This document shows positions 12,204 through 58,902 of a stretch of 58,902 bases of DNA, piece after piece. Every line of letters starts with the position of its first letter. Positions within the stretch are counted from its first letter, which is position 1. Under the pieces are notes generated by a model. That model saw only the letters and a list, made by a program, of their open reading frames with translations. It had not been told where the DNA came from and did no database searches. Position numbers and translations under genes: made by a program. This DNA comes from Kondoa subrosea (lineage: Eukaryota). Location of the stretch: positions 2,415,129 through 2,474,030 of the forward strand of contig BCIN01000001.1 in the NCBI GenBank assembly GCA_039545335.1, written 5' to 3'.

Positions 12204-14409
12204 TCACCAAGGTGCAGCCGCTAATTGACCATAATTCCTTAGTACAACGCTTCCGTTACTTCTTTCTTCATGTTGATCAGAATGGGTCAGAACAGTTGAC
12301 GTCTCAACTAAATTTCTTTTCGAGTTAGGTGGTTTCACAAGTTGAAAAGGTTCAATAGGGATTTCCACTTGACCTCTTTTGACCAACAATTTCTTCATGC
12401 CAGTATTATTGCTACTTGCGATAGATCTTGTTACTCTGGCAGTAGTAGTGGATCCACCAACTCTGGAAACAGATACACCCGTTTCCGTTTCGAAGAATGT
12501 TGCTGGAGGTCCACAACTGCTTTCATGGCTTTGATCTCCAGTAGAATCAGTTTCAATCTTGTTTTGCGTTCTTGTACGAGCAGTGATAGTGGAAAGATTA
12601 GTTCTGGTCCAATTGGAAGAACTAGCTGGAGTGCCTCCTGTGCCGAGAGTCATTTGACTGGAACCAGCTTGTGTATCAGTGTCGAAGTCGGTCACTGTAA
12701 CAGCAGGTCGCACAGGTAAAGAAGAGGAAGTATGTAAGTGAGTGCTACGATCTTCAGTTTGAGCTTCAGTGTTTCGACCTGACCTAGATGACTTGTGGGT
12801 TCTTGATGAAGATTTCGACTTGTCTGATTTATTGGATTTGCCTGATCGATCTGATTTGCCAGACTTGTCTGATTTTTCAGACTTGTCTGATTTCCCTGAT
12901 TTGTTGGATTTGCCGGACCGGTGAGATCTCATTGAACCTTTGCCAGACTGCTTCTCTGAAATATATGACAATCGGGAACCAACGCCAAAAGCAGTTTCTG
13001 TCAAGCTTTGATGGTCGCCGAGGAAGTAGGTACTTGCTGGCATGGGAGACGAAGCAGATCGAATTCGACCTGGAACTTGTGGACTCAAAGTACTGGAATG
13101 AGTATAGGAGCGCAGTCCATTTTGCAGTGAAGGCTGGTAACTCTCTTTGCTCCTTGAATATGGAAGATCAAGTGCATCGTCCCTGTGACAATCATCAGAA
13201 ACGAATCGATCATATTCTTGAAGGCACGTACGATGACAAGGACAAAGGTCGCATCCACGATGCCTCCTTGGTTAACTTTTCCTGACTCTCGCTACCGCTT
13301 CTACTACGAAGATACTTCTTGTGCACATACTTTCGTTGCCCACATAATTCAGCAAAGAATCCATAGCTTTCAGGCAGAGTCAAAATCAGGAAGAGAAGTC
13401 CGCTAACAGGAGGGACCCATTCTGATGCTGTGATAGATGACTTGGTCGGATATTGCCAGATACGATTCTAAGAATGCAAGATCTGAGACTTAGTTAAGGT
13501 CTAAAGAGGAACAACTTACAGATGCACCAGAGATGAAAATGGTTTGCCAATCTACATATGGCGCCCTTTTACTCAGTTGAATGAAGAACATTAACGAGAT
13601 GGGCGCGTTGAAAGTACCGAAGCCAAAGACGAAAACGACCAGGCGCCAAACTATGCTTGCAGACAAGAATGGTAAATCTCGCGACGAGATGCGAGATTCT
13701 AAAGTCTTGTTAAGATATAGGCGACAGACAGTGACAATGCCGAAAACTGCAGATAACAAATTTCATCATGGAGCTGACATTCTGAAAACTACGAACCTCC
13801 TGTTACAAAAGCAGCGACTGCAAAAGCCTGTTGCCATACGAATAATAGCATATAGGCCGGGAGTGACAGAAGTATAGAGCTTTCGCAGCCTGATTGATTG
13901 GCTATGGAATATTTAGAAGGGGCATAACTGCCTTGTGCAGCCACCGCGACGACGGGCATGATGAGACAAAGCCCAAGACTCATTCCTTCGGCCAAAGGCG
14001 TCGAAACAGATACAGGCGAATCCGGTCTTCTGCCCATTATTTTCAGGAGAAGTCTACCGGTGCACAAGACTGCGAGCGGTATCCCTATTGTGCCTCCGAG
14101 TTGTAACCCTGCACACATATATCAGCGAGAACATGCTGCTGAACTAGCCACGCACTCGATATAAGAAGACAACCTCCGCTGAACTTTGCTGTTGCGCCAT
14201 TGCCCCAGATAACAGCATTAAGCTACTTTCTCATTAGTGACAGTCTTTATCAGTGGATCGGGACGTACTCCGACCGCACCATTCGTCAGAAAGAGCCAAA
14301 AAGCTAAGCAAGATGGTCCAGCTAATCTCCGTTTCCCAAACCAGATTAGTGCAGGGAGATTCAGCACCGCAGCTAGTACGGCGACGACAATAAACACAAT
14401 GGTCGCCAT
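12204..14409 (-). CDS. STE3: Divergent STE3-like pheromone-receptor GPCR with long Ser/Thr/Lys-rich tail
   Basis: Seven hydrophobic segments after splicing. STE3-like landmarks: NLPALIW, WLFLTN, VIWGN, IGIPLAVLC, KYSIANQSGC, PYVDWQTI...RIWQYP, WVPPVSGLLFL. An intron near 13183-13233 joins the 7TM region to ORF 12204-13088. Confidence 0.7.
12811..12917 (-). repeat. Degenerate 9-nt coding tandem repeat encoding (S-x-K)n
   Basis: Translates SGKSNKSGKSDKSEKSDKSGKSDRSGKSNKSDKS; DNA units like TCAGACAAG/TCTGGCAAA. Confidence 0.85.
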
Positions 14410-34303: not shown

Positions 34304-37300
34304 TCACCGAGATCGGCATGCAGAACGAACCTGACTGTTGATAGCATCGGCCCAAGATTGAGCCTCATCTTCAGATGATAATTTGAGGTACATGATTTGA
34401 CGAGAATCGACCAAACGCAAAACTCCGTCTCTTCGAGCGCTTGCACAGGAAGTTCGTTGGCTTTGACCTAGCCGCAGAACGGTGTGCAGCTTCACTTGTC
34501 CGACCGTTTCGCCGTTATCATAGATGAGAACCAGGATATCAGATGTGAGTAGTGCGATAAGACGTCTGCTGTCTGTCTCGCTTTTGAGGGAATTGACTTG
34601 ATGGACGGTTGTTGTACCGTCTACTTCGGATTGGACATGTTCAAAGGTCCTTTTGAGAGATCGCTCCAGCAACATTGGGCCTTCTTTAACCAGAGCCTGT
34701 CAAAAACGTTAGCCAAAACCATTTGTTCTGTTGAGGTAAACTCACTCGATGCGGCTGAACCAAAGGTGACTTGAAACGCTGTCCGATTCGGGTCTGCCAG
34801 TAGAGCAAACGATGACGACCTTCGCTTTGACGCTTGCGTTCATTAAGGTCAGAAGCCAAATGAGAAACCAGTTCTAGAGCGTTTGCGATTTGAGGATTTG
34901 GTGCCAGCATATACGATCCGTCATCTACTGGAGTGCAAGAAAGGAGAGCCTCGAGTAACATCTTGTATCGCGGAATGCGTTGAATGGGCATCAGCAGATC
35001 TGTGTCAACTTTGAGATTGCTGTAAACGGCATGTGTTTTGTCACTCACAAGAGTCGCAGCCGATCTGACTATGATCTGGATGCGTTCGGCACTGTTTGAG
35101 GAATGCTTTCATGCGTTTCCGCTGAGTGGCAGAGAGGGTTTCGTTTTCGCGTCGCACGACTGAGTCCAGACCATTGGAAAGACCAGGAGCAGCACCGTTG
35201 GCCAGTACCGAGCTTGACGAGGGCACAGGAGAAGTCCATGTCTTAAAACGACTCATAGCTAGTACAAACTTTTCAGCTGTGTCATTTACTGCGGTTAAGC
35301 AAACATACCAGTATCGAAGTTGTTTACATAAGTAGAATACCTACGATCAATCTAAGTCAGCACTATACGATGTCAGAAACGGGAAAAGAGCTCACATGCG
35401 TAGGAAAGCGCCATGACGATTGAACACCTTTGCAAGTTCTTCTGCAGTTTTCCGCGAGTCGACGCTGTCTGAACTATCGACCGACACATAGCTATCTCTA
35501 TTCTGTCTCATACTCTGGCTGACAGCTTCCAGATCAGGTAAGAAGTGGTCTTGATGAAATTTGAGCAAGCCTTCAACATTGGAAAAGACTGTTCGACGTT
35601 CTGGGGCGGGAATAATGCTTTCTCCGTTGCCCGATCCTTTGATAGGTTGGGATCCAGGTGTGACGTAGATTGTGACTAGTTCTCGAAGACCGGCAACATA
35701 CGACTTCTCGCTGGCAATAATCTCCTCAATCAATTTTTCTCGCTTATAAGGATCGTTGTTGAGCTTGATCGCAGTCGGTGGAGACATTGAGCCATCGACT
35801 GATGTATCTTGCGTGCTTGCGCTGGAATGAGCCTTTCGTTGCAGATCTTCGCTGAAACCGTCAGATCTTTGGCCGTTGGAGAACAAGCTAGAGTGAGCAG
35901 AAGAGCGAGAGGAAGCGGTCGTCAGATTGCTCGAGTAAGGCTGACGAGCACTGGAGGAACGCGAGACAGTTGGTCTACGGTACCCATTTTGCGATTGAAG
36001 TTCAGAAAGAGCAGTCAAAACAGTCGCTGGAGAATTGTCTGGACCTAAATCGTCCAGATCTCTTAGATACTGCATCAGACCTCGTAAAGCAGATCTGGGC
36101 TGTTCTTCCACCGCAGGGCTCTCGAGTTCTTCAGTCTCTGAATCATCGGTATCGGTCGGGGTGTCAATCGACATAGACGAAGATGGTAAGTAGCGCAATT
36201 GGAGTACGCCCGAGCTCGAGTATTCGGAAGGTGATTGTGAGAGAGAAGAATTGCGATCTGGAAGTTTGATGGTTTCAGCAAATGATGGAGCGGAAGAAGC
36301 AGTCCGGTTCCGGGTGATAGACAGGAAGTTCTTTTGCGGGCGAACGACTGTACTGGCATTGATTTCTGGAGCTGAGCAACTTCGTTGGTCTATACTTCGA
36401 GGATCGGTTGTTAGTAAAGGTCGTTTGAGACCTTCACCTTTGCTTCGACCGAAAGATCCCATCTTCTTGAAGAAGCTGCTTTTCTTTTTGCTCATAGGTG
36501 TAGCATCAATGCTTGACTCTTGTTTCCGAGGAACCGGCAGCTCGCCAAAGTCACCCAGAGATTGTAGTACGGCTTCGGGCGATAGACTGATACTGCGGTG
36601 ATTCATTGATGCTGGAGTATTGCTTCGACTAGAAACAGGAGGTAAGCCATTCTGAGAAGACCGGGTAGGTGGTCGACTGAATGCCAAATCACCATGACTT
36701 CTCATCTTCCGCATTCCGGAAGCCGATGGTAGACTAGCTGTAATATTGTGATCTTGTCTCGAGGAAGAAGGTGCACCAGCTATCGATGGTCTTCGTGGCA
36801 ATGGTCGACGAGGGGCATGCATTTGTGGATCAACAGGACTGGGACCATTAGGCGAATCTTCACCTTGCATATTTGGTGATCGCGGGGAATCGATGAAGGA
36901 AGAAGCCGACGAAGAAGACATACACAGAGGACGTACCAACTCTGTCCAATGGTCAGAGAAAGGATTGTTGTCGATTCGAAGGTATTGCAGACTCTTTTCC
37001 AAATGACACAGCCAAGACGGAAGCGAGAGAAGCTTGTTGTTTGTCAATGACAGAGTGTGAAGGTCTGAGAGAGTGGAAAGGGGGTACTGTAGATTCCTGA
37101 TACCGCATGAATCGGCTGTCAAGATTTTAAGCGAAAAAAGGGATGCAAGAATAGGTGGCAGAGTAGTGAAGTTATTGCCAGAGAGATCCAGTTCTTCCAA
37201 GCTGCGAAACGAAGACATCGTATGCGGTAGTTCCGTGAGTTTGCATTCCCTGTTCGATGGGTGAGAATTCAGGTTGCTGCGGCAAACGAAAGATCACTCA

Positions 37301-40542: not shown

Positions 40543-42214
40543 ATGGAAGATGGCGACGAGTATGAGTTGGATACAGCAACAGCAACGCACGACCAGCTAT
40601 TGAAGGGTTACCTCTATTTTCGCTCATTGGCAAGGGACAGGTTTGTTTGGCATTGTCTCGAGGTTCAAGTCGCAAGCATCTGATGGGTTCAAGTACGACA
40701 GTGATGCTCAATTGGATGAGACTCGAGCTGCTCTAGAAGAATTTCAAGCTTCAAGTCGAGAATTGGAGCAAGAGCTCGAGCGTGACTTAGCTGCGACAGA
40801 GCAGCGTGAGACGGAACTCAGAATAGCTCACGAGAAAGTAATGCAAGAGCTAGCTGATTGGAGATCCAAGTACCAATCCAGTCTTAAAGAACATACTACA
40901 ACCCTGCAACATATGCAGAAAGAGCTGGAAAGCGTGCGAGCTTCTGAACAAGCTATACGGACGCGTATTCGTGATGTGAGCAGCTTTCCTCCCAGACTAT
41001 CCATATCCGCTGACTCTCCAATCCAGATGGAACTCGATAATGACGATTTGGAAAAGAGTGAAAGGTTAGCACAACACACATATCTCTTATTCTTCCCTCA
41101 ATTTGGTATCCAGAGCACTTGAAAGCACTCTCTCTGATGTTGAATCTCGCTATGGTAAAGCAATCGAGCGGACAATACTCTTGGAGGAAGAACTGGTTGC
41201 TAAAGCTCGTCTCGAAGAAGATGTTCAAAGGCTACGGGATGAGCTAAGAGGTGCGTCATTGACGTGATACCGTGAAGACATGTACTAACGATCGAAGTAG
41301 ATTCGAATGAAGAGCTCTTTGCGATAAAATCTCGACCAGCAGTTCAAGAGCTTCCCTCTCGTCCTCTTACTCCTGTACGCAAAGCATCTCCAATACCTGA
41401 AGCTTCTACATCAAGTCCTTCTCGAGAACAAGCTGAAGATGCAATGCCCACACCGAAGAAGGCTAGCGATCTTCGTCGACCTATCTCTTCCGCTTCAGCC
41501 ATCCCTCGATCTACTTCTACACCTGATATGCTGTCTAGCCGAATACCAATGAAAAGTCCATCACCTGCTATATCACCTTCTATAGCAGCTAGCAATCGAC
41601 GACAGCCCTTGGCAAGAGGTGTAAAGAAGAACGAAACCATGTTATCTGACTTGAGGAACATGACTTCCCGAGTTAAGAACATGACTGCTCGAGTGGATTC
41701 AAGGAGAACATCTTCTATACCCACTACTACTACTACCACTTCTATACCATTACCTCGGGCAAGAAAATCTTCAGTTTTATCTTCTTCCGTTTCATCAATG
41801 AATGAAATGCCTCCACCTCCTTTACCTTCTGCAAATATCAAGCGTCATACACCTCTACCTAGAGCTAGTCGAATAGCAGAAGATAACAACAACAGACCTT
41901 CTTCACCTATTTCTCGACCTGCATTACAGCGACCTCAATCGAGATTGAGCGTCATGTCCACTTCTTCTTCCTCATCAAGACCTACTACACCGATACAGAG
42001 AAGTATTTCACCAGAGAAAAGATCAAAACCTAATGGAGTAGGGTTTGGTTCTTCTACGCCAAGTGGAAGATTACCTACTGCTTTACCGAGGACTACATTA
42101 GAGGGGAAGAGAGGAGCAGGTCAATTAGGTGGATTAGGGAGAAGGACGAGCGTCAAATTGAGATCGCCGTCGATACAGCAAGTTAATACATTAACTGAGG
42201 ATGAGACTTTTTGA
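40543..42214 (+). CDS. nudE: NudE/NudEL dynein regulator
   Basis: Coiled coil LEEFQASSRELEQELE, MELDNDDLEKSER, AIERTILLEEEL, QRLRDELR; Ser/Pro-rich disordered tail. Confidence 0.92.
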
Positions 42215-42397: not shown

Positions 42398-44535
42398 TTA
42401 TAATTGACCAGGAATCATCTAGCATGAATGTCGTGAGCGTTGGGTGACGATCAGGCAGTGAACACATACAGATTCTGGGATAGGCAGTCCCGGGGCAATG
42501 CTAATATTTGACAAATGTTAGATCGATTAACGCGAAAGCCAGGCTGACGTACGAGATGCCCTGCATGTGACCACCGAAGAGTACTTTGCCTTCCCTCTCG
42601 GTGAATTTGGCAATGCGTTCCTCCTGGAGAAGAAAAAGGGATTTCAGCAAACTAGTTATCGTTACGATGCTGCAAACGCACCACTAGAGGCCTGAAGTTT
42701 TTGAGTCTGTAGTAGACATGAAGATTGTCAGTTTAGTCGACGGTCGAAGCGAGAAATTTGATTTACAATCCTTGTCTATGCGAGAAAATGGTCAAAATTA
42801 GTCCAAATCGACCGCCGAAACGACAGATCGACTCACACAGGCCAGGCTGATGCATCTCCCAACTAAAACACGCATTCTGGACGTCAGGGGAGTATTTTGG
42901 ACTTCGCCGGACACTTACAGCACAAATTGTGTGACCTGAACCAAAAAATTAGGGTGCTTCTACGACTACGTGTCTGCGCGCTTACCCTCGATCTCCTTGG
43001 TGAGCTCATACATCATGTCAATCTCTCTAGGGTGAGCACGACCTTCAACCATTCGATCCATCATGGTAGCGAGCCAGGAAGTTCCTTCTCTGCAAGGAGT
43101 ACATTGTCCACATGATTCATGCTTGTAGAACTTGGAGAAGCGAGCAATAGCAGCAATGAGATCAGTGGATTTGTCCATGACGATAACTGCTCCTGTTCCA
43201 AGACCAGATCCGAGATCTTTGAGCGAATCGAAGTCCATCCTGAATTGAGGCAGACTGTCAGCTCTGCTGCTGAGCTACGAAGAGCGCGAAAGCGTACAGA
43301 GCCTCTTCAGATTGCTCCTTGTTGAGAATAGGTACAGAAGAACCACCGGGAACGATTCCCAACAGGTTGTCCCATCCACCTCGGACACCTCCACAGTGTT
43401 TGTCTATCAGTTCTCTCAATGGCATTGACATCTCTTCTTCCACAACACATGGATTGTTGACATGACCTGAAATACAGAAAAGTTTTGTACCTTGATTGCG
43501 ATCTCTTCCCATGCCGGCGAACCAGCTTGCACCTCTTCTAATGATTGTAGGAGCAACAGCAACGGTTTCTACATTGGCAACAGTGGTAGGACAACCGAAC
43601 AAACCAACATCAGCAGGGAAAGGTGGCTTCAATCTTGGTTTGCCTTGTTTGCCTTCAAGTGATTCAATCAAAGCGGTTTCTTCACCACAGATATAAGCAC
43701 CCGCTCCTCGGTGAACGTAGACGTCGAAATCATAGCCTGATCCGCATGCGTTCTTGCCAATTAATCCTTCTTTGTACGCTTCATTAATTGCTGCTTGCAA
43801 ATGCGCCGCTTCTAAGTAGAACTCTCCACGGATATAGATGTATGCTGTCAGGCGATGAAAATCAAATCCGGCGAACCGAAAGCTACCACATCACCACTGA
43901 CCAGCTGTTGCGTTCATTGCTCGACCGGCAACCAGACAGCCTTCTACCAGCTTGTGCGGGTCACCTCTCATGATCTCTCTGTCTTTGCAAGTACCTGGTT
44001 CTCCCTCATCTGCATTGACTACCAAGTATCGAGGTTTGCCGCCTCCCGCTTCCTTCCATCCAGGCTTGTTCATGAATGACCTGCCGTACACTCAGCTTTA
44101 CAGCATTTAATGCATTGTATTGATCTTGACTGACCATTTGAGACCAGAAGGGAAACCTGCACCACCTCGACCTCGAAGACCTGAATCTTTGATCTGTTGA
44201 ATAATCCAGTTGTCCCCCTTTGCGATGATATCTTTGGTTCTGTGCCAATCTCCTCTTGCTTTAGCACCCTTGAGTAAGTGATCGTGCTTCATGTAAGCAT
44301 TTGTAAAACTATACGAAATTCGCGAGAGCCAATAAGATTTTATGCATTGGCAGTCCATTCAGGGCTGCACTTACATTCGATCTTGATCCTTCAAGCCTCC
44401 GAAGCCTGAAGTCTTGCGCGCAGGTGGAGCAGCAGGCTTAGGAGGATCTTGAACTGTGGCCAGAGATCGGACTGCATTCACTGAGCTAGGCAGCGTTTTA
44501 GAGACTCTGGGTCGATGAGCTAGCGAGCGTTTCAT
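42398..44535 (-). CDS. NDUFV1: NADH:ubiquinone oxidoreductase 51-kDa flavoprotein subunit
   Basis: [49 protein letters not shown]; Fe-S motif [12 protein letters not shown]...GHTICALGDA. The last two exons are less certain. Confidence 0.97.
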
Positions 44536-52715: not shown

Positions 52716-55299
52716 ATGGCTTCTTGGCATTATTCCTTCGAAGGTATCAGCGTTGGGAATGGATCTACCAATATCCTCAGCAATGTGACTGCTAGTGTAG
52801 GACCGGGCGAAATGTTGGGTAAGCCTTGTTAGTCAGCTTAAAAATAGCAGCTAAGCTGTTCAAAGCGGTACTTGGACCCTCAGGATCCGGAAAATCTACT
52901 CTTCTCGACTGTACGTTGTGTTGGATCTGTGCCTGTAATACTACGCTCATCTAAAGTACTTAGGTTTGGCATCTCGCGTACCTGCCAATCTATCAGTCAA
53001 AGGCAATATCAGCTACGGCAGCAAAACTATTCCTGCCAAAGGAGGGCAACCAAATTTCATTGCCTATGTACCTCAAGAAGATAGTGGACTCGTCGGCGCT
53101 TTGACAGTCCGACGCAATCTCATCTATGCAGCTGAACTACGGATGCCAGCCAAATCTACTTCGGCGGAACGCAAAAATATGGTTGACTCGGTGTTGAAGG
53201 ATTTGGGCCTTGTAAGCTAAAGTCCTCAGTTGGATTGCATCTTACCCATTGCATCTTACCTATTCAGTCGCATCAAGCGGATCTGGTGGTCGGTCGTTTA
53301 TTCAAGAAACACATCTCAGGTGGACAGAAGCGAAGACTGTAAGATCACTGTCAGAATATCATGAGAATGATGCTGACAGAACATTATAGGTCCCTAGGTC
53401 TTGAATTGACCGGCAGTCCTCAAGTCCTGTTGCTCGATGAAGTTACCTCCGGTCTAGATTCCGCAGCCGCTTTGTCGGTCATGACTGCAGTCAAGCGCTT
53501 GTGCAGACTTCTTTCCCTCCGTGTAGTTTTGACCGTACACCAGCCAGCTTCTCAACTCATGGACCTATTTGATCACGTACTCTTCCTCAGCAAAGGTCGT
53601 GTGGCTCATGTTGGCCTTGTTGCGCTCCTGCCTAGCTGGTTGAGCTCTATAGGGTAATTCTCGGCTGCGCATGGCCTGAACAGTACTGAAGGAAGACTGA
53701 ATTAGATATCCGTGTCCGCAATACGTCTCTCCGCAAGATTACATTATTGCGGCTCTCAACGATAGCTTCTTCGACGGATCTGCGGAAAGTCAAAAGCTGA
53801 AAGAACTCCAAGATGCGATATGGCTGTCTCGCCCAGACAGAAGTCCGATTGAGACGCCCTCCCAAGAGAAGAGCTTCCTTCTAGGACCAACACGCAGTTC
53901 TGAGAAGATGCCAAACAACCTTCAACTGATTTGGACATTGACACGTCGCAATTTGGAGAACAACGCTGTAGATCCAGCACCATTTTGGATTCGCATAGTT
54001 GTAAGGCGATATACGGGCTTCTTTAGGTTATTTTCCGATTCAAAAAAATAGATCAATGTCTCTGTTGCACTCTTTGGCGGGATCGTTTGGGCGAGATTGA
54101 AGGAGAACGATCAAAACCTCAATACAGTCCTGGGATCTACCTTCTTCCTGTAAGGCTTGCCATTCTTTTGCGCTTGCTTCCCTGACGGTTACCTTCGTAG
54201 GTGCCTTGGCGCAGGATTCAATGGTCTCACAGCTATCGTTCCTACTTTATCATTTCGAAACCTCTTCATCCACGAGTTGCTCAACGGCGCCTCTCGACCT
54301 TTGCCGTTCTTTTGCTCTTTAATCTTCAGCTGTATACCCTTTCTGGTCTTCCAAGCGCTTCTAATGGCACCTGGTCCATACTGGCTTATTGGTCTGAAGG
54401 CTACACCTGCTGCATACGTAAGCTTTTGCCATTGCCTTCTTGTCGTAATTACTGAACTCCGTCTCAGTTCACCTTTGTCCTGATATTGTTCTTCGCTACT
54501 TTAATACCGGAACTTTTCGTTACTTGCTGTACCTATATCATGCGCGATAAAGTGTCAGCGAATTCGTTGGGGGTCATGTTATTCGGTGTTCTCAGTAAGG
54601 TCTCAGCTATTCATCTCAGTACGCATCTCAACCCGTACTACAGTGATCAGTGGGTCGGTTTGGGCCAGTCTCGTACTCGAGCTCAAATGATCTTAGTGTC
54701 GGGCAGATTTAGCCCTGCTGACAATTTCAAGAGTTTATGGAAGGTACTTTGTCAGTACTGCACAGCCTAGTCTTTGTTACTGCGCTGAACAACAGCAATA
54801 GATGACGCAAATATATACAAAGCTAGTCGAGGTCTTCTAACTCCGCTCTAGTTGCTAATGCTCTTGAAACAACAGTACACCACAGAGGCAACCATGTATA
54901 GTCAATTTCACGGACGTCAAGTGCTATGTGTGACGAAGGCTCTGGATTGTGTTGACGGGTCCATAGGTGTAAGTAAGGTCAATCCCAACATGGGCTTGAC
55001 AGCTAACGCTCAAGTAGTTCTCAGCAATTCAAGATCGTTTTGGACTACATCTACATTCGCTATCTTCTGGCTTACTCGGTTTACTAGCAATCACTGGCGT
55101 CGCTTGCCTTTCTCTTGCAGTGCTTGTTTTCGCTTTGGACCTTGAATGCCGAGGCAAACTATCCTTCGACGCTTTCCGTCTCCCAAATCGACGTAAATCC
55201 ATCTTCCAACCCTTGCTCGGAAGGTCTACAGAAGATGTCAGCGAATCTAACTCTCTCAAGGGCGATACCGGTGCACTCGACTGTCTCGACAAAGTATAG
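52716..55299 (+). CDS. ABCG (White-type) half ABC transporter, NBD-TMD
   Basis: Walker A GPSGSGKST; YVPQED; signature ISGGQKRRL; Walker B LLLDEVTSGLDS; TVHQP; then RNLENNAVDP..FWIR and six hydrophobic segments. Many introns. Confidence 0.92.
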
Positions 55300-55856: not shown

Positions 55857-56423
55857 CTAGCCCTGTCGCTGATTGCGCTCAAATCGCTTGTATGATGTAA
55901 ACATCCATAGCTCATTCACTGCAGCGAATTTGACTTCTGTCTCAGCTCGCCTTGTGATTCTGGCCAATCGACTTTGAGGCAGAGGTAGCCGAGGAAGATG
56001 AACGAATCCTTCTTCCACTTCTTGACAAGCTTGAGCTTTGAATGTGAATTGCTCGCGATGAGACAAAGGTGTGATGAGTTCCGGTGTTGGAACGATGCGG
56101 CGATCGCATTCTTCCTGACAAGCAGGGATATAGACTGATCGTGCGAGCTGCTGACGAGAGCGTTGAAGGACGTTCTGAGCGTGTTGTTGCTTTGCGAAGC
56201 GAGAGGCAGCAGCTTGAATGCGCGAGGAGAGAGTTCGCTCCTGCTCTGCGTCGACATCAGGGATGTAGGTTGTGCCTAATGCTGACCATTGCGATAAGCA
56301 GAGGTGAGCTTCATTCTTGCGAATGCCGCTGCGAGCAGACTTGAGAGGAGTGGAGCTGCTGCGCTTTGAAGTAGATCGAACTGGTCCATCTTTGTAAAGA
56401 TTGAAGAAGGAGAAGAGCGGCAT
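55857..56423 (-). CDS. Hypothetical basic protein (~188 aa)
   Basis: Intronless ORF from ATG 56423 (MPLFSFFNLYKDGPVRSTSKRSS...). No motif recognised. Confidence 0.5.
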   Translation of the reverse strand: MPLFSFFNLYKDGPVRSTSKRSSSTPLKSARSGIRKNEAHLCLSQWSALGTTYIPDVDAEQERTLSSRIQAAASRFAKQQHAQNVLQRSRQQLARSVYIPACQEECDRRIVPTPELITPLSHREQFTFKAQACQEVEEGFVHLPRLPLPQSRLARITRRAETEVKFAAVNELWMFTSYKRFERNQRQG

Positions 56424-56974
56424 GATGATTGAGTGTATAGCAGGCAAAAGGTTTTGATGTGCTAGTGCTCGCTCGACTCGATGGAAACAGTTGATAATGA
56501 AGAAGAGGAAGGAGACAGAATATTTCAGCTGTTATAGCAGCTACATGCATGGCTTGATAGGAGTCTTTGAGCTTACGACTGATTGCAAGTCAATTTGACC
56601 AACAGTCGATTTCGCGAGTGGGAATCGAAATCAAAGCAAATCGCATCAAACATGGCACGTAGAGGCAGACGAGACAGAGAAGAGCGATAGGCGGCAGCAC
56701 CGATAGAGCGCAGCAGAAGGACCGAGTAGCGCAAACGAGAAGTACTAAAGAATCGCTCCGAACTCGACAATTTCAGAAGGACTTCATCAAGGATCAATCG
56801 AAAAGCAGCGCTGAATTTAGTCGCGCGTGATGATGATCAGACGCTCGAAGGTAAAAGTCGAGATGAGGTGGTGCATGGGAACAACCTTGCTTGCCTTTGA
56901 ACGCTCTTCTCGCTTGTTGTCGATGTGCCTTTGAGAGTACTGGACCCGCTTCTTAATTCTCTCGCGTCATACAG

Positions 56975-57328
56975 TGCCAAAAGCCTGCCGCGAAGAAGAA
57001 ATCTGCTTTCCATTTGCATTTTCAAGATTTTGATGTCTCGAGCTTGAAATGGGCTGCAGAAGATGCAATATGGCTCGGAATAGTTGTCTGGACTTTCTTT
57101 GACACGTCGTTATGGATCGCAACGGCTGTCTGGACGAAGAATACACCCAGCAGCAAAATGGATCTGGACCGACAATTATGCCCGGAAACGGCTCTGAGAG
57201 CCTATGTAGCAATGCACATCGCTTTTTCAGCGGCGTATACGGCTGTTCTCGATCTGAATGCACTGCCCTGTGCTGTCGAAAGCACTCGAAAAGAGATTGG
57301 CTCGATTCTGGCCGACTATCTAGGATGA
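56975..57328 (+). CDS. Possible terminal exon of a small unknown gene
   Basis: 117-codon open frame after a CAG acceptor at 56972-56974, with a hydrophobic stretch AIWLGIVVWTFFDTSLWIATAVW. No convincing first exon found. Confidence 0.25.
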   Translation, partial: CQKPAAKKKSAFHLHFQDFDVSSLKWAAEDAIWLGIVVWTFFDTSLWIATAVWTKNTPSSKMDLDRQLCPETALRAYVAMHIAFSAAYTAVLDLNALPCAVESTRKEIGSILADYLG

Positions 57329-57661
57329 TGTGAAAGCTTAAGGAAGCAATCGTACTATTCGCTCAATTATAACTCTTCTACACCGAAGCGGTCTCCTTCT
57401 TCATGCAAAGATCGTCTGTTTCTCTTCTTCTTCCTCGCGGTGAGGACTACCGGCATGCTGAATTGCTTTGGGATCGATGTATGTGTGTCAAGTGGCCTAC
57501 AAGCCAGTTCAACTTGGTCGAATGTTGAACAAGTCTTTGCTTTCGATCCTGATGAGTAAACTGAAGCTGTTATGGTACAAGAGTAACCCGTTGCTACGCG
57601 CCAATCACTGCGTCCTATCGGCGTGCACCCATTCCTGGTCCATTACGTACATCGATGTTGT

Positions 57662-57722
57662 CCGGTGAACGATGAAAGAGATTCTCGATTGGTTTCGCCG
57701 GTGAAACGATGAAACGAGATTC
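57662..57722. repeat. Imperfect direct repeat upstream of the tRNA
   Basis: ccggtgaacgatgaaagagattc (57662-57684) and ccggtgaaacgatgaaacgagattc (57698-57722). Confidence 0.8.
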
Positions 57723-57811
57723 GCCGGACATCGCGTCTGATGATTTGTCCTACAGATCACGAGAATTTTTTATCTATATGGCTAAGAAGTCCTGGCTTCA
57801 CCACCAGTCGC

Positions 57812-57936
57812 GGTTTTATAGCTCAGGTTTGTTCAATAACTCGTTACCTAAAATCACGTTTCTGACATCCTCTGAAGTTGGTTAGAGCGTCCGACTGTTA
57901 ATCGGGAGGTCGTTAGTTCAAACCTAACTTGAATCG
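57812..57936 (+). tRNA. tRNA-Asn(GUU) with a 51-nt GT-AG intron in the D-loop (57827-57877)
   Basis: Exons 57812-57826 + 57878-57936 give GGTTTTA TA GCTC AGTTGGTTA GAGC G TCCGA CTGTTAA TCGGG AGGTC GTTAG TTCAAAC CTAAC TTGAATC G (74 nt). D, anticodon and T stems pair; anticodon GTT at 57897-57899; G73 discriminator; B box GTTCAAAC. Confidence 0.9.
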
Positions 57937-57942
57937 TTTTTT
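57937..57942 (+). terminator. RNA polymerase III T6 terminator
   Basis: TTTTTT immediately after the discriminator base. Confidence 0.85.
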
Positions 57943-58094
57943 GCTCTCGGCCTCTGCATAGGTTTTTTGTTGGGTCATGCAGGGTTGATCGTCGTAGGCT
58001 TGGACATGGTAGACTTGTATTGGGTCAAAATTGTTGAAAATATACCGTCCAAACATCTTTATTGAGGCGATAATAGCGGGAGGACTCTATGAGT

Positions 58095-58902
58095 TTATAA
58101 ACGCATTCGCCAATCGCGTATCGACCTCAAAGCCGAATGACGTCTGCCATTGAGAGTAGCGATATCAGCACCGTGAGCTAATAGANCTTCAGCGGTTCCT
58201 CTCGGCTGCTGCTCGTCGTACCCTGCTCAAGATCAGCGGATTTCCTGCAGTGAAGATTTGACGCACCTTCAACACGCATTCGTACTTTACGCAAAGAAGG
58301 AAAGATCTTCCTCTTCAATGCTTCCAACATTGGCTTGTATCCGACTGTCGTCCAGCTCAAATACATAATTTCCATAGTAGCATGCCCCTTCTCTAAGAGA
58401 CTTTCATCAAAGCAAGCACCTTCCAAGTGTAAACTGAGCAACCCNGGGCACATAGCCAACGCCTTTGCNCCAAAGCTTCGATCACCGCCATCTGATTCTC
58501 TCCACAGCCGATCAACGCTGAGATGTAGTAATCCAGGACCACTTTGAGCTAACAGATTGAGTATGCCATTCTCATCAAATACATCATCTGCAACTTCAAG
58601 ATACAAGCTAGTCAACTTTAGATGACCAAACAAATGACTGAAGCGAGAGTTGCTGATCTGTGGTCGAATCAAGCATAACTTCTCAAGATGAGGCATATCA
58701 AGCGAGGCAATGCAATCATCTTCCAAATTTGAAAGCGAAAGATGTTGCATAGTATCTTTCCAAGCAGAAAAAGAAGGCAACAAATCAGATAGACGAATAG
58801 ATTGCCGAAGACCAATAATCTCCAAGGCTTTCAAAGGTTTCGCTTCCAAAGCTTTGAAAATGCCACGGTGCAAAGGATCTTCGCCATAACTCCAATCTAG
58901 CT
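58095..58902 (-). CDS. 3' part of an RNI-like/F-box-type LRR protein, start beyond the right edge
   Basis: Repeated LxxLxL units (MQHLSLSNL, LEKLCLI, LTSLYLEV, LLHLSVD, LLSLHLEG, LRKVRM). A probable GTACGA..TAG intron leads to a last exon ending at 58095. Contains N bases. Confidence 0.6.

Follow-up and report, generated by a model that had tools for sequence, protein, structure and literature searches.

Can a transfer RNA (tRNA) gene carry a spliceosomal, mRNA-type intron, and could the spliceosome then mature the tRNA? The question is raised by a locus in a 58,902-nucleotide (nt) stretch of contig BCIN01000001.1, hereafter the window, in which a tRNA-Asn gene is interrupted in its D-loop by a 51-nt insert. 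The evidence makes it highly probable that this insert is a spliceosomal-type (GT-AG, U2-type) intron sequence lying in a real tRNA-Asn gene. The further claim, that the spliceosome turns a transcript of the gene into a working tRNA, falls just short of an even call when judged from the DNA, and is weighed below against the alternatives.

Anatomy of the split tRNA-Asn locus

An earlier, sequence-only reading of the window had described a 15-nt exon 1, a 51-nt insert, an exon 2 and a T6 tract at this locus, and we found the same layout at the same coordinates (Table 1). Exon 1 supplies the 5' acceptor strand, U8, A9, the 5' D-stem strand GCTC, A14 and G15. Exon 2 supplies the remaining D-loop and D-stem, the anticodon arm, the variable loop, the T arm, the 3' acceptor strand and the discriminator G. 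D-loop positions 15 and 16 flank the insert. Since AG closes exon 1 as well as the insert, the cut site is ambiguous by 2 nt; three cuts are equivalent, and GT..AG ends result from only one of them. The AAG acceptor, read on the sequence, yields exactly the junction that the tRNA requires.

Table 1. Features of the split tRNA-Asn locus and its surroundings (positions in the window)
Feature	Position	Strand	Basis
Exon 1, GGTTTTATAGCTCAG, tRNA positions 1-15	57812-57826	+	Sequence reading; ARAGORN on joined exons
51-nt insert with spliceosomal-intron anatomy	57827-57877	+	Sequence reading and intron comparison
Insert donor, GTTTGT	57827-57832	+	Sequence reading
Insert branch site, CTGAC (branch A at 57865)	57862-57866	+	Sequence reading
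Insert acceptor, AAG	AG at 57876-57877	+	First AG after A57865, 12 nt on
Exon 2, TTGG...TTGAATCG, 59 nt, tRNA positions 16-73	57878-57936	+	Sequence reading; Rfam; ARAGORN
Competing TAG, 8 nt past the AAG	57883-57885	+	Sequence reading
Anticodon, GTT	57897-57899	+	Sequence reading
T arm with B-box-like GTTCAAACC	57912-57928	+	Sequence reading; general consensus
T6, directly after the discriminator base	57937-57942	+	Sequence reading
TATA-like CTATATGG, ~31-38 nt upstream of tRNA position 1	57774-57781	+	Sequence reading

Excision had been said to regenerate a proper D-loop, and this held: exons 1 and 2, joined by script, were called as tRNA-Asn(gtt) by ARAGORN. The call persists at 110% of the ARAGORN threshold and is lost at 115%. 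Read off the sequence, the invariant positions U8, A14, G15/C48, G18G19, A21, U33, G53, U54U55C56, A58 and C61 are all in place, and the D, anticodon and T stems of the joined tRNA are fully paired. The description of the 3' portion as perfect was too generous, as the acceptor stem that it forms with exon 1 is weak, with two G.U pairs and a U.U mismatch (G1-C72, G2.U71, U3-A70, U4-A69, U5.G68, U6.U67, A7-U66).

The strength of the ARAGORN call was gauged by joining random 5' parts to exon 2. Exon 2 bears most of the score, so that random 5' parts are often called (6,996 of 360,581 joins at the default setting), and a default call is accordingly weak evidence for exon 1. Its use as proof of exon 1 was rejected as too permissive, and the 110% threshold was used instead. 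At that threshold 15 of the 360,581 random joins pass, falling within 15 of 2,981 random 150-base segments. The joined gene passes too, from which we conclude that exon 1 is real.

In its interrupted form the gene escapes detection, as the sequence-only reading had expected of standard tRNA finders. ARAGORN reports no tRNA in the intact window, nor in the unspliced stretch when options for anticodon-loop introns are allowed. Rfam gives no match in the window at gathering thresholds, and below threshold it aligns 57876-57928 with part of the tRNA model (positions 9-63; 25.5 bits versus a gathering score of 29). At an E-value threshold, no further tRNA piece and no small nuclear RNA (snRNA) was found by Rfam in the whole window.

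As a chance control, every GT..AG segment of 40-100 nt was deleted in turn, on both strands and across the whole window. Three of 28,131 deletions yield a tRNA call, all three at the split tRNA-Asn locus; one is the deletion of 57827-57885, which gives a low-grade ARAGORN call. No other hidden tRNA emerged in the window from these deletions, which longer or multiple introns escape. In silico intron removal, which the sequence-only reading had proposed for the whole genome, thus uncovered the split tRNA-Asn and no further tRNA in the 58.9 kb.

The source of the DNA was approached through its proteins. The NADH dehydrogenase 51-kDa subunit encoded in the window is 83-85% identical to homologs from Rhodotorula, Mixia, Microbotryum and Puccinia, and the aspartate aminotransferase is 90% identical to that of Puccinia. 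Environmental protein sequences match the window proteins at 94-98% identity. By these identities the window proteins are closest to those of Pucciniomycotina, and the locus is best explained as a tRNA-Asn(GUU) gene in the nuclear genome of a basidiomycete from this subphylum.

The insert among the introns of the window

A local yardstick for the insert was obtained by mapping introns with our own protein-to-genome aligner and homologous proteins. The main set comprises 28 introns, of which the NADH dehydrogenase gene contributes 11, the aminotransferase gene 12 and LAT1 5. The same 12 aminotransferase introns were recovered with a second homolog, each LAT1 intron is backed by 5 or 6 of 6 homologs, and the boundaries of the NADH dehydrogenase micro-exons rest on one near-identical homolog. 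Left out were candidates in LAT1 that lie in its low-complexity linker or N-terminal part and are each backed by 1-2 of 6 homologs, as well as candidates in an ABC-transporter gene with a single distant homolog; four better-supported ABC introns were kept outside the set of 28. At the 3' end of the NADH dehydrogenase gene (42400-42990, minus strand), seven introns are packed into ~590 nt, separated by very small exons.

The 28 introns measure 49-66 nt, with a median of about 55. Their acceptors are CAG (19) and TAG (9), with no AAG among them. Their donors are varied; 27 of the 28 have G at +5, and one has the form GTTTGT. G at +5 is combined with a CTRAY branch motif 10-25 nt before the 3' end in 11 of the 28, very often as CTGAC, and in the local introns with CTRAY the branch mostly lies 13-22 nt from the 3' end. 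The insert fits this profile. Its 51 nt fall inside the observed range, its donor GTTTGT has G at +5 in the same form as an intron of the window, and its branch motif is the locally common CTGAC, with the acceptor 12 nt after the branch A.

Most of what the sequence-only reading had claimed about these signals was upheld. CTGAC as a branch site, a length typical of the genome and the lack of a T run that would stop RNA polymerase III (Pol III) all agree with the mapped introns or with the insert itself, in which the longest T run is 3. Use of AAG as a local acceptor was also found, in the 47-nt intron of the ABC-transporter gene (ABCG-type) at 52819-52865 (plus strand), which is supported by 3 of 4 distant homologs and restores the spacing GEML-A-VLGPSGSGKST around the Walker A motif. 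This intron lies immediately ahead of the Walker A motif, and in it an in-frame CAG 15 nt upstream of the AAG would add five residues. The GTTTGT donor had been ascribed to introns of LAT1 and of a NudE-like gene. The former stands, in the LAT1 intron 3886-3832 (minus strand; 5 of 6 homologs). The NudE-like gene at 40641 probably also opens its first intron with GTTTGT, as judged from open-reading-frame logic; with the frame set by the ATG at 40543, CAG at 40701 is a more likely end of that intron than AAG at 40693.

How often such signals would arise by accident was estimated by drawing 313,111 segments of 49-66 nt at random from the window and inserting each at the D-loop site, with equivalent cuts allowed. 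GT..AG ends were obtained in 2,495 cases (0.80%), GT..AG ends with G at +5 in 558 (0.18%), and both together with a well-placed CTRAY in 51 (0.016%). An insert unrelated to splicing is therefore very unlikely. The same test is passed by 195 of 9,368 GT..AG segments of 47-66 nt in the window (2.1%), versus 11 of the 28 real introns.

The 13-mer around the insert's branch site, CGTTTCTGACATC, recurs exactly in a likely intron of a RhoGEF gene at 35341-35394 (minus strand). This shared sequence may reflect an extended branch-site preference of the genome or a common origin. No other copy of the insert was found in the 58.9-kb window, where a check for an introner family gave a best match of 13 nt. 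A pairing of exon 1 with TAAAATC of the insert, seen in the minimum-energy fold, was dropped since a rough estimate put it at about the level expected by chance.

Proposed maturation, sister copies and alternatives

If the gene works, we infer that Pol III copies it into a single transcript of about 130-140 nt; the unit is marked by the upstream TATA-like element, the B box in the T arm, intron T runs of at most 3 and T6 after the discriminator. A T6 tract is a terminator-like signal for Pol III, and upstream TATA elements occur at fission-yeast and plant tRNA genes; by analogy, CTATATGG is a possible candidate for an upstream Pol III promoter element. U1 and U6 would pair with CAG/GUUUGU, the branch would form at A57865 within UUCUGAC, and the first AG downstream, 12 nt on, would serve as acceptor. 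Joining of the exons would restore the D-loop AGUUGGUUA and create the spliced junction GCUCAG/UUGGUUAG, and only then could the cloverleaf fold and ribonuclease (RNase) P and RNase Z trim the ends. The intron itself probably has a splicing-linked origin, for example by reverse splicing followed by reverse transcription and recombination, as has been proposed for the introns of U6 snRNA.

Further copies of the tRNA were sought in two DNA runs, X1 and X2, which stem from one sample and are probably the source of the window. From each loose end, 30 letters entered the contig comparison. In both runs a 1,171-nt contig matches 56738-57908 with zero differences; it runs through exon 1 and the insert and 31 nt into exon 2, and the insert is therefore also present in the assembly of the reads. 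This contig stops at 57908, where the last 31-mer to include T57878 ends, indicating that the following 31-mer also occurs in other DNA.

A second contig joins the identical core at 57879 and carries 43 different bases upstream. Immediately ahead of TGGTTAGAGC it reads CTAAC, 16 mostly pyrimidine bases, CAG and then AGC, which resembles the 3' end of an intron and takes the place of a D-stem strand. Compared with the 51-nt insert, this upstream sequence shares ATCCTCT and differs by several substitutions and two indels, and the adjoining 31 nt of the tRNA core are identical between the two copies. On its sequence, the second contig is read as carrying a conserved exon next to a homologous intron that has diverged. 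A diverged intron next to an identical exon favors the view that the exon was under constraint once the intron was in place. No loose end shown in X1 and X2 has an intact GCTCAG D-arm joined to the core.

Two more loose ends, 255 nt each, join exactly at 57911/57912, the border between the variable loop and the T stem, with unlike sequence. One starts CAGTGAGT (GTGAGT-like), and the other ends CTGAT, 11 bases and CA before G57912. From these ends, taken as belonging to one contig, another copy or copies seem to carry an insert of an estimated 225 nt or so between positions 48 and 49. The ends of this insert resemble a donor on one side and a branch site with acceptor on the other, but its removal by a GT-AG cut would leave the tRNA inexact. 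That copy is therefore probably damaged. It also has a CAG 2 nt ahead of the AG that would be required. The contig that begins at 57912 (2,674 nt; window part 57912-58902) has a depth of ~403 versus ~135 for the contig of the locus. Although depths give no copy number, these values fit three copies or haplotypes that are alike downstream and diverged upstream. This multi-copy or multi-haplotype block thus has its border within the tRNA, where the T stem begins.

Variation extends beyond the gene. Upstream of the tRNA, at 56400-57210, X1 and X2 contain at least two further variants that are 80-95% alike and differ by many substitutions, by an insertion of 8 nt and by a skip of 174 nt (56926 to 57101); either haplotype divergence or a segmental duplication could account for them. 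About 100 nt upstream of the tRNA gene, at 57640-57730, a motif is repeated in tandem (GGTGAAACGATGAAA...GATTC), and one contig skips 46 nt of it (57655 to 57702), so that the repeat number varies between copies. An exon at 13792-14121 (minus strand) has a Pfam match to STE3, the pheromone a-factor receptor. The window may belong to a basidiomycete mating-type region or lie close to one, and this could account for haplotype divergence. Downstream of the tRNA gene, single N bases stand at 58186, 58445 and 58469 within a minus-strand open reading frame (ORF; 58181-58900) that has no Pfam match.

Several features of the locus speak for a working gene: the intact tRNA positions, the well-placed first AG, the terminator, the TATA-like box and the conserved core beside a diverged intron. 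To these may be added that no intact copy of the isodecoder is seen among the loose ends shown, and that the lineage offers a precedent, described below.

Other observations count against a working gene. The donor and the acceptor are minority forms, the former found in 1 of the 28 mapped introns and the latter in none of them and in one of the additional ABC introns. A consensus TAG follows 8 nt past the AAG, and its use would remove part of the D-loop and D-stem. By the general consensus, the A box is split after its AG, leaving the A and B boxes ~96 nt apart, and the 5' exon consists of 15 nt plus the leader and is uncapped. Of the seven acceptor-stem pairs, three are A-U, two are G.U, one is G-C and one is a U.U mismatch, which is poor for a cytosolic tRNA. 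X1 and X2, as the probable source of the window, are not independent of its sequence, and the copy with the ~225-nt second insert suggests that its locus tolerates damage.

Comparison with tRNA-Asn genes in JGI metagenome contigs points in the same direction. The exact 59-nt exon 2 had no match there. A looser tRNA-Asn pattern found at least 117 loci, and all 119 matches listed are uninterrupted, with GCTCAG before each; these are mostly bacterial-looking and thus say little about fungi. The 35-nt core of exon 2 is identical to that of intact tRNA-Asn genes in two loci (L030 and L040), the nearest among the matches listed, and the acceptor stems of the nearest intact genes are G+C-rich. Of 117 yardstick genes, 40 still pass at 120% of the ARAGORN threshold, whereas the joined gene passes only up to 110%.

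The alternative that fares best is that the locus is a dead or dying copy. The insert would be intron-derived or intron-like, no working tRNA would be made from this gene, other intact tRNA-Asn genes would serve the cell, and the splice signals would be a relic or would never have been used on a transcript. We regard this as a serious if tentative explanation, well under an even call. It draws on the weak acceptor stem with its U6.U67 mismatch and single G-C pair, the merely moderate ARAGORN strength, the minority donor and acceptor, the split A box, the sister copy or copies with a long insert at 48/49 and a shifted CAG, and the high variability of the flanks between copies. However, an insert unrelated to splicing would be this intron-like in ~0.016% of cases, and no similar element occurs elsewhere in the 58.9-kb window. 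A dead copy also sits uneasily with the intact invariant positions and three intact stems, with a terminator and an upstream TATA-like element that are both retained, with a 31-nt core that is identical in two copies despite a strongly diverged adjoining insert, and with the lack of an intact D-arm joined to the core among the loose ends shown.

Far less probable is that the tRNA resides inside an RNA polymerase II (Pol II) transcript, either a non-coding host or a read-through product, from which the insert is spliced co-transcriptionally and the tRNA is freed by RNase P and RNase Z, with Pol III uninvolved. Such a host would remove the difficulties of the split A box and of a 5' exon of 15 nt with no cap, and splicing would not have to compete with rapid pre-tRNA processing; the splice signals are ordinary for the Pol II genes of the window. 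However, T6 right after the discriminator and a TATA-like box ~35 nt upstream form the layout of a stand-alone Pol III gene, and no plus-strand ORF with a Pfam match flanks the locus.

Removal of the insert by a protein endonuclease and a ligase, or by self-splicing, is more improbable still. The eukaryotic tRNA endonuclease measures to position 37/38, and the insert lies at 15/16. In other lineages, ectopic D-arm introns are cut by the tRNA endonuclease (PMC3728597 and PMC3978253, in excerpt). Such cutting relies on a bulge-helix-bulge (BHB), a fold that the sequence-only reading had named as a sign against spliceosomal removal. The best BHB at the locus has 6 of 8 pairs, which is equalled by 3,063 of 4,965 random junction pairs and is therefore not beyond chance. 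As to self-splicing, the insert alone folds at -1.0 kcal/mol and is almost unstructured, its 51 nt are far too short for a group I or group II intron, and it matches no Rfam intron family. Taken together, these results disfavor both the endonuclease and the ribozyme route.

The slimmest prospect of all is a mis-assembly artefact, or a nuclear copy of mitochondrial DNA with an A+T-rich, mitochondrial-type tRNA-Asn: the acceptor and T stems are indeed A+T-rich, as in organellar tRNAs, and the only DNA runs with the stretch are probably its own source, but the 1,171-nt contig in X1 and X2 matches 56738-57908 without a difference, the flanks do not read as A+T-rich in a window of 43-49% G+C throughout, and a fragment of exact tRNA size with T6 and a GT-AG insert would be unlikely as a relic.

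Significance and comparison with known systems

Spliceosomal maturation of this tRNA, if true, would break the rule, stated in excerpts of the recent reviews PMC10275265 and PMC13149111, that tRNA splicing avoids the spliceosome. The list of non-coding RNAs with mRNA-type introns, given in part of PMC5855946 as U6, U1, U2, U5 and ribosomal RNA (rRNA), would gain an RNA that is never in the spliceosome. A functional gene would also bear on how introns are gained, namely by reverse splicing into abundant RNAs or only near the catalytic center, and would imply that, in intron-rich fungi, shortcomings of the finders can distort tRNA gene counts and make anticodons seem "missing". A wider claim, that tRNA genes of this fungus, and perhaps of Pucciniomycotina more broadly, carry true spliceosomal introns and that the tRNA-Asn(GUU) isodecoder exists only in intron-bearing copies, strikes us as unlikely on present evidence. 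Were the isodecoder so confined, part of the tRNA supply would pass through the spliceosome, and standard finders would count too few tRNA genes in genomes of this kind. Even a dead copy would be a clean natural record of intron gain outside protein-coding genes, in a Pol III gene.

A search of the literature, which mostly did not extend to subscription journals, turned up no description of a tRNA gene with a spliceosomal intron, in line with the sequence-only reading, which knew of none. A search aimed at U6 introns in Pucciniomycotina yielded no useful paper. Where tRNA splicing is described in excerpts of PMC10275265 and PMC13149111, it proceeds by endonuclease and ligase, without the spliceosome. 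Like the canonical introns at 37/38 that are removed by the SEN endonuclease and tRNA ligase, the insert is an intervening sequence of a nuclear tRNA whose removal is needed for function. It differs from them in its position at 15/16, its GT..AG ends, its CTGAC branch site and the lack of intron pairing with the anticodon loop. With the ectopic BHB introns and permuted genes of Cyanidioschyzon merolae and archaea (PMC3728597 and PMC3978253, in excerpt), it shares an interruption outside the anticodon loop, which in those systems includes the D arm, and an escape from tRNA finders. In contrast to those introns, it shows no BHB beyond chance and has spliceosomal signals instead.

The closest parallels are the introns of snRNA genes. 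As described in part of PMC5855946, spliceosomal introns occur in U6 of Schizosaccharomyces pombe, a Pol III gene for which splicing was shown experimentally, and in U6, U1, U2 and U5 of Rhodotorula hasegawae, and they are known for rRNA too; bioinformatic surveys give up to four introns in fungal U6 genes. For the snRNA introns that source cites Tani and Ohshima 1989/1991, Takahashi et al. 1993/1996 and Canzler et al. 2016, and in the part considered here tRNA is not among the RNAs listed with such introns. The tRNA-Asn insert resembles the snRNA introns of S. pombe and R. hasegawae in being a short intron with canonical splice sites and a branch site in the gene of a small structured non-coding RNA. 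It differs in that its host is a tRNA and its splicing is predicted from DNA, whereas splicing of S. pombe U6 was shown at the RNA level. Since a tRNA is not part of the spliceosome, the argument of reverse splicing at the catalytic center does not apply directly. R. hasegawae is taxonomically Erythrobasidium hasegawianum, a member of Pucciniomycotina. It thus belongs to the same subphylum as the window and provides a lineage precedent both for the gain of such introns and for the splicing of Pol III transcripts.

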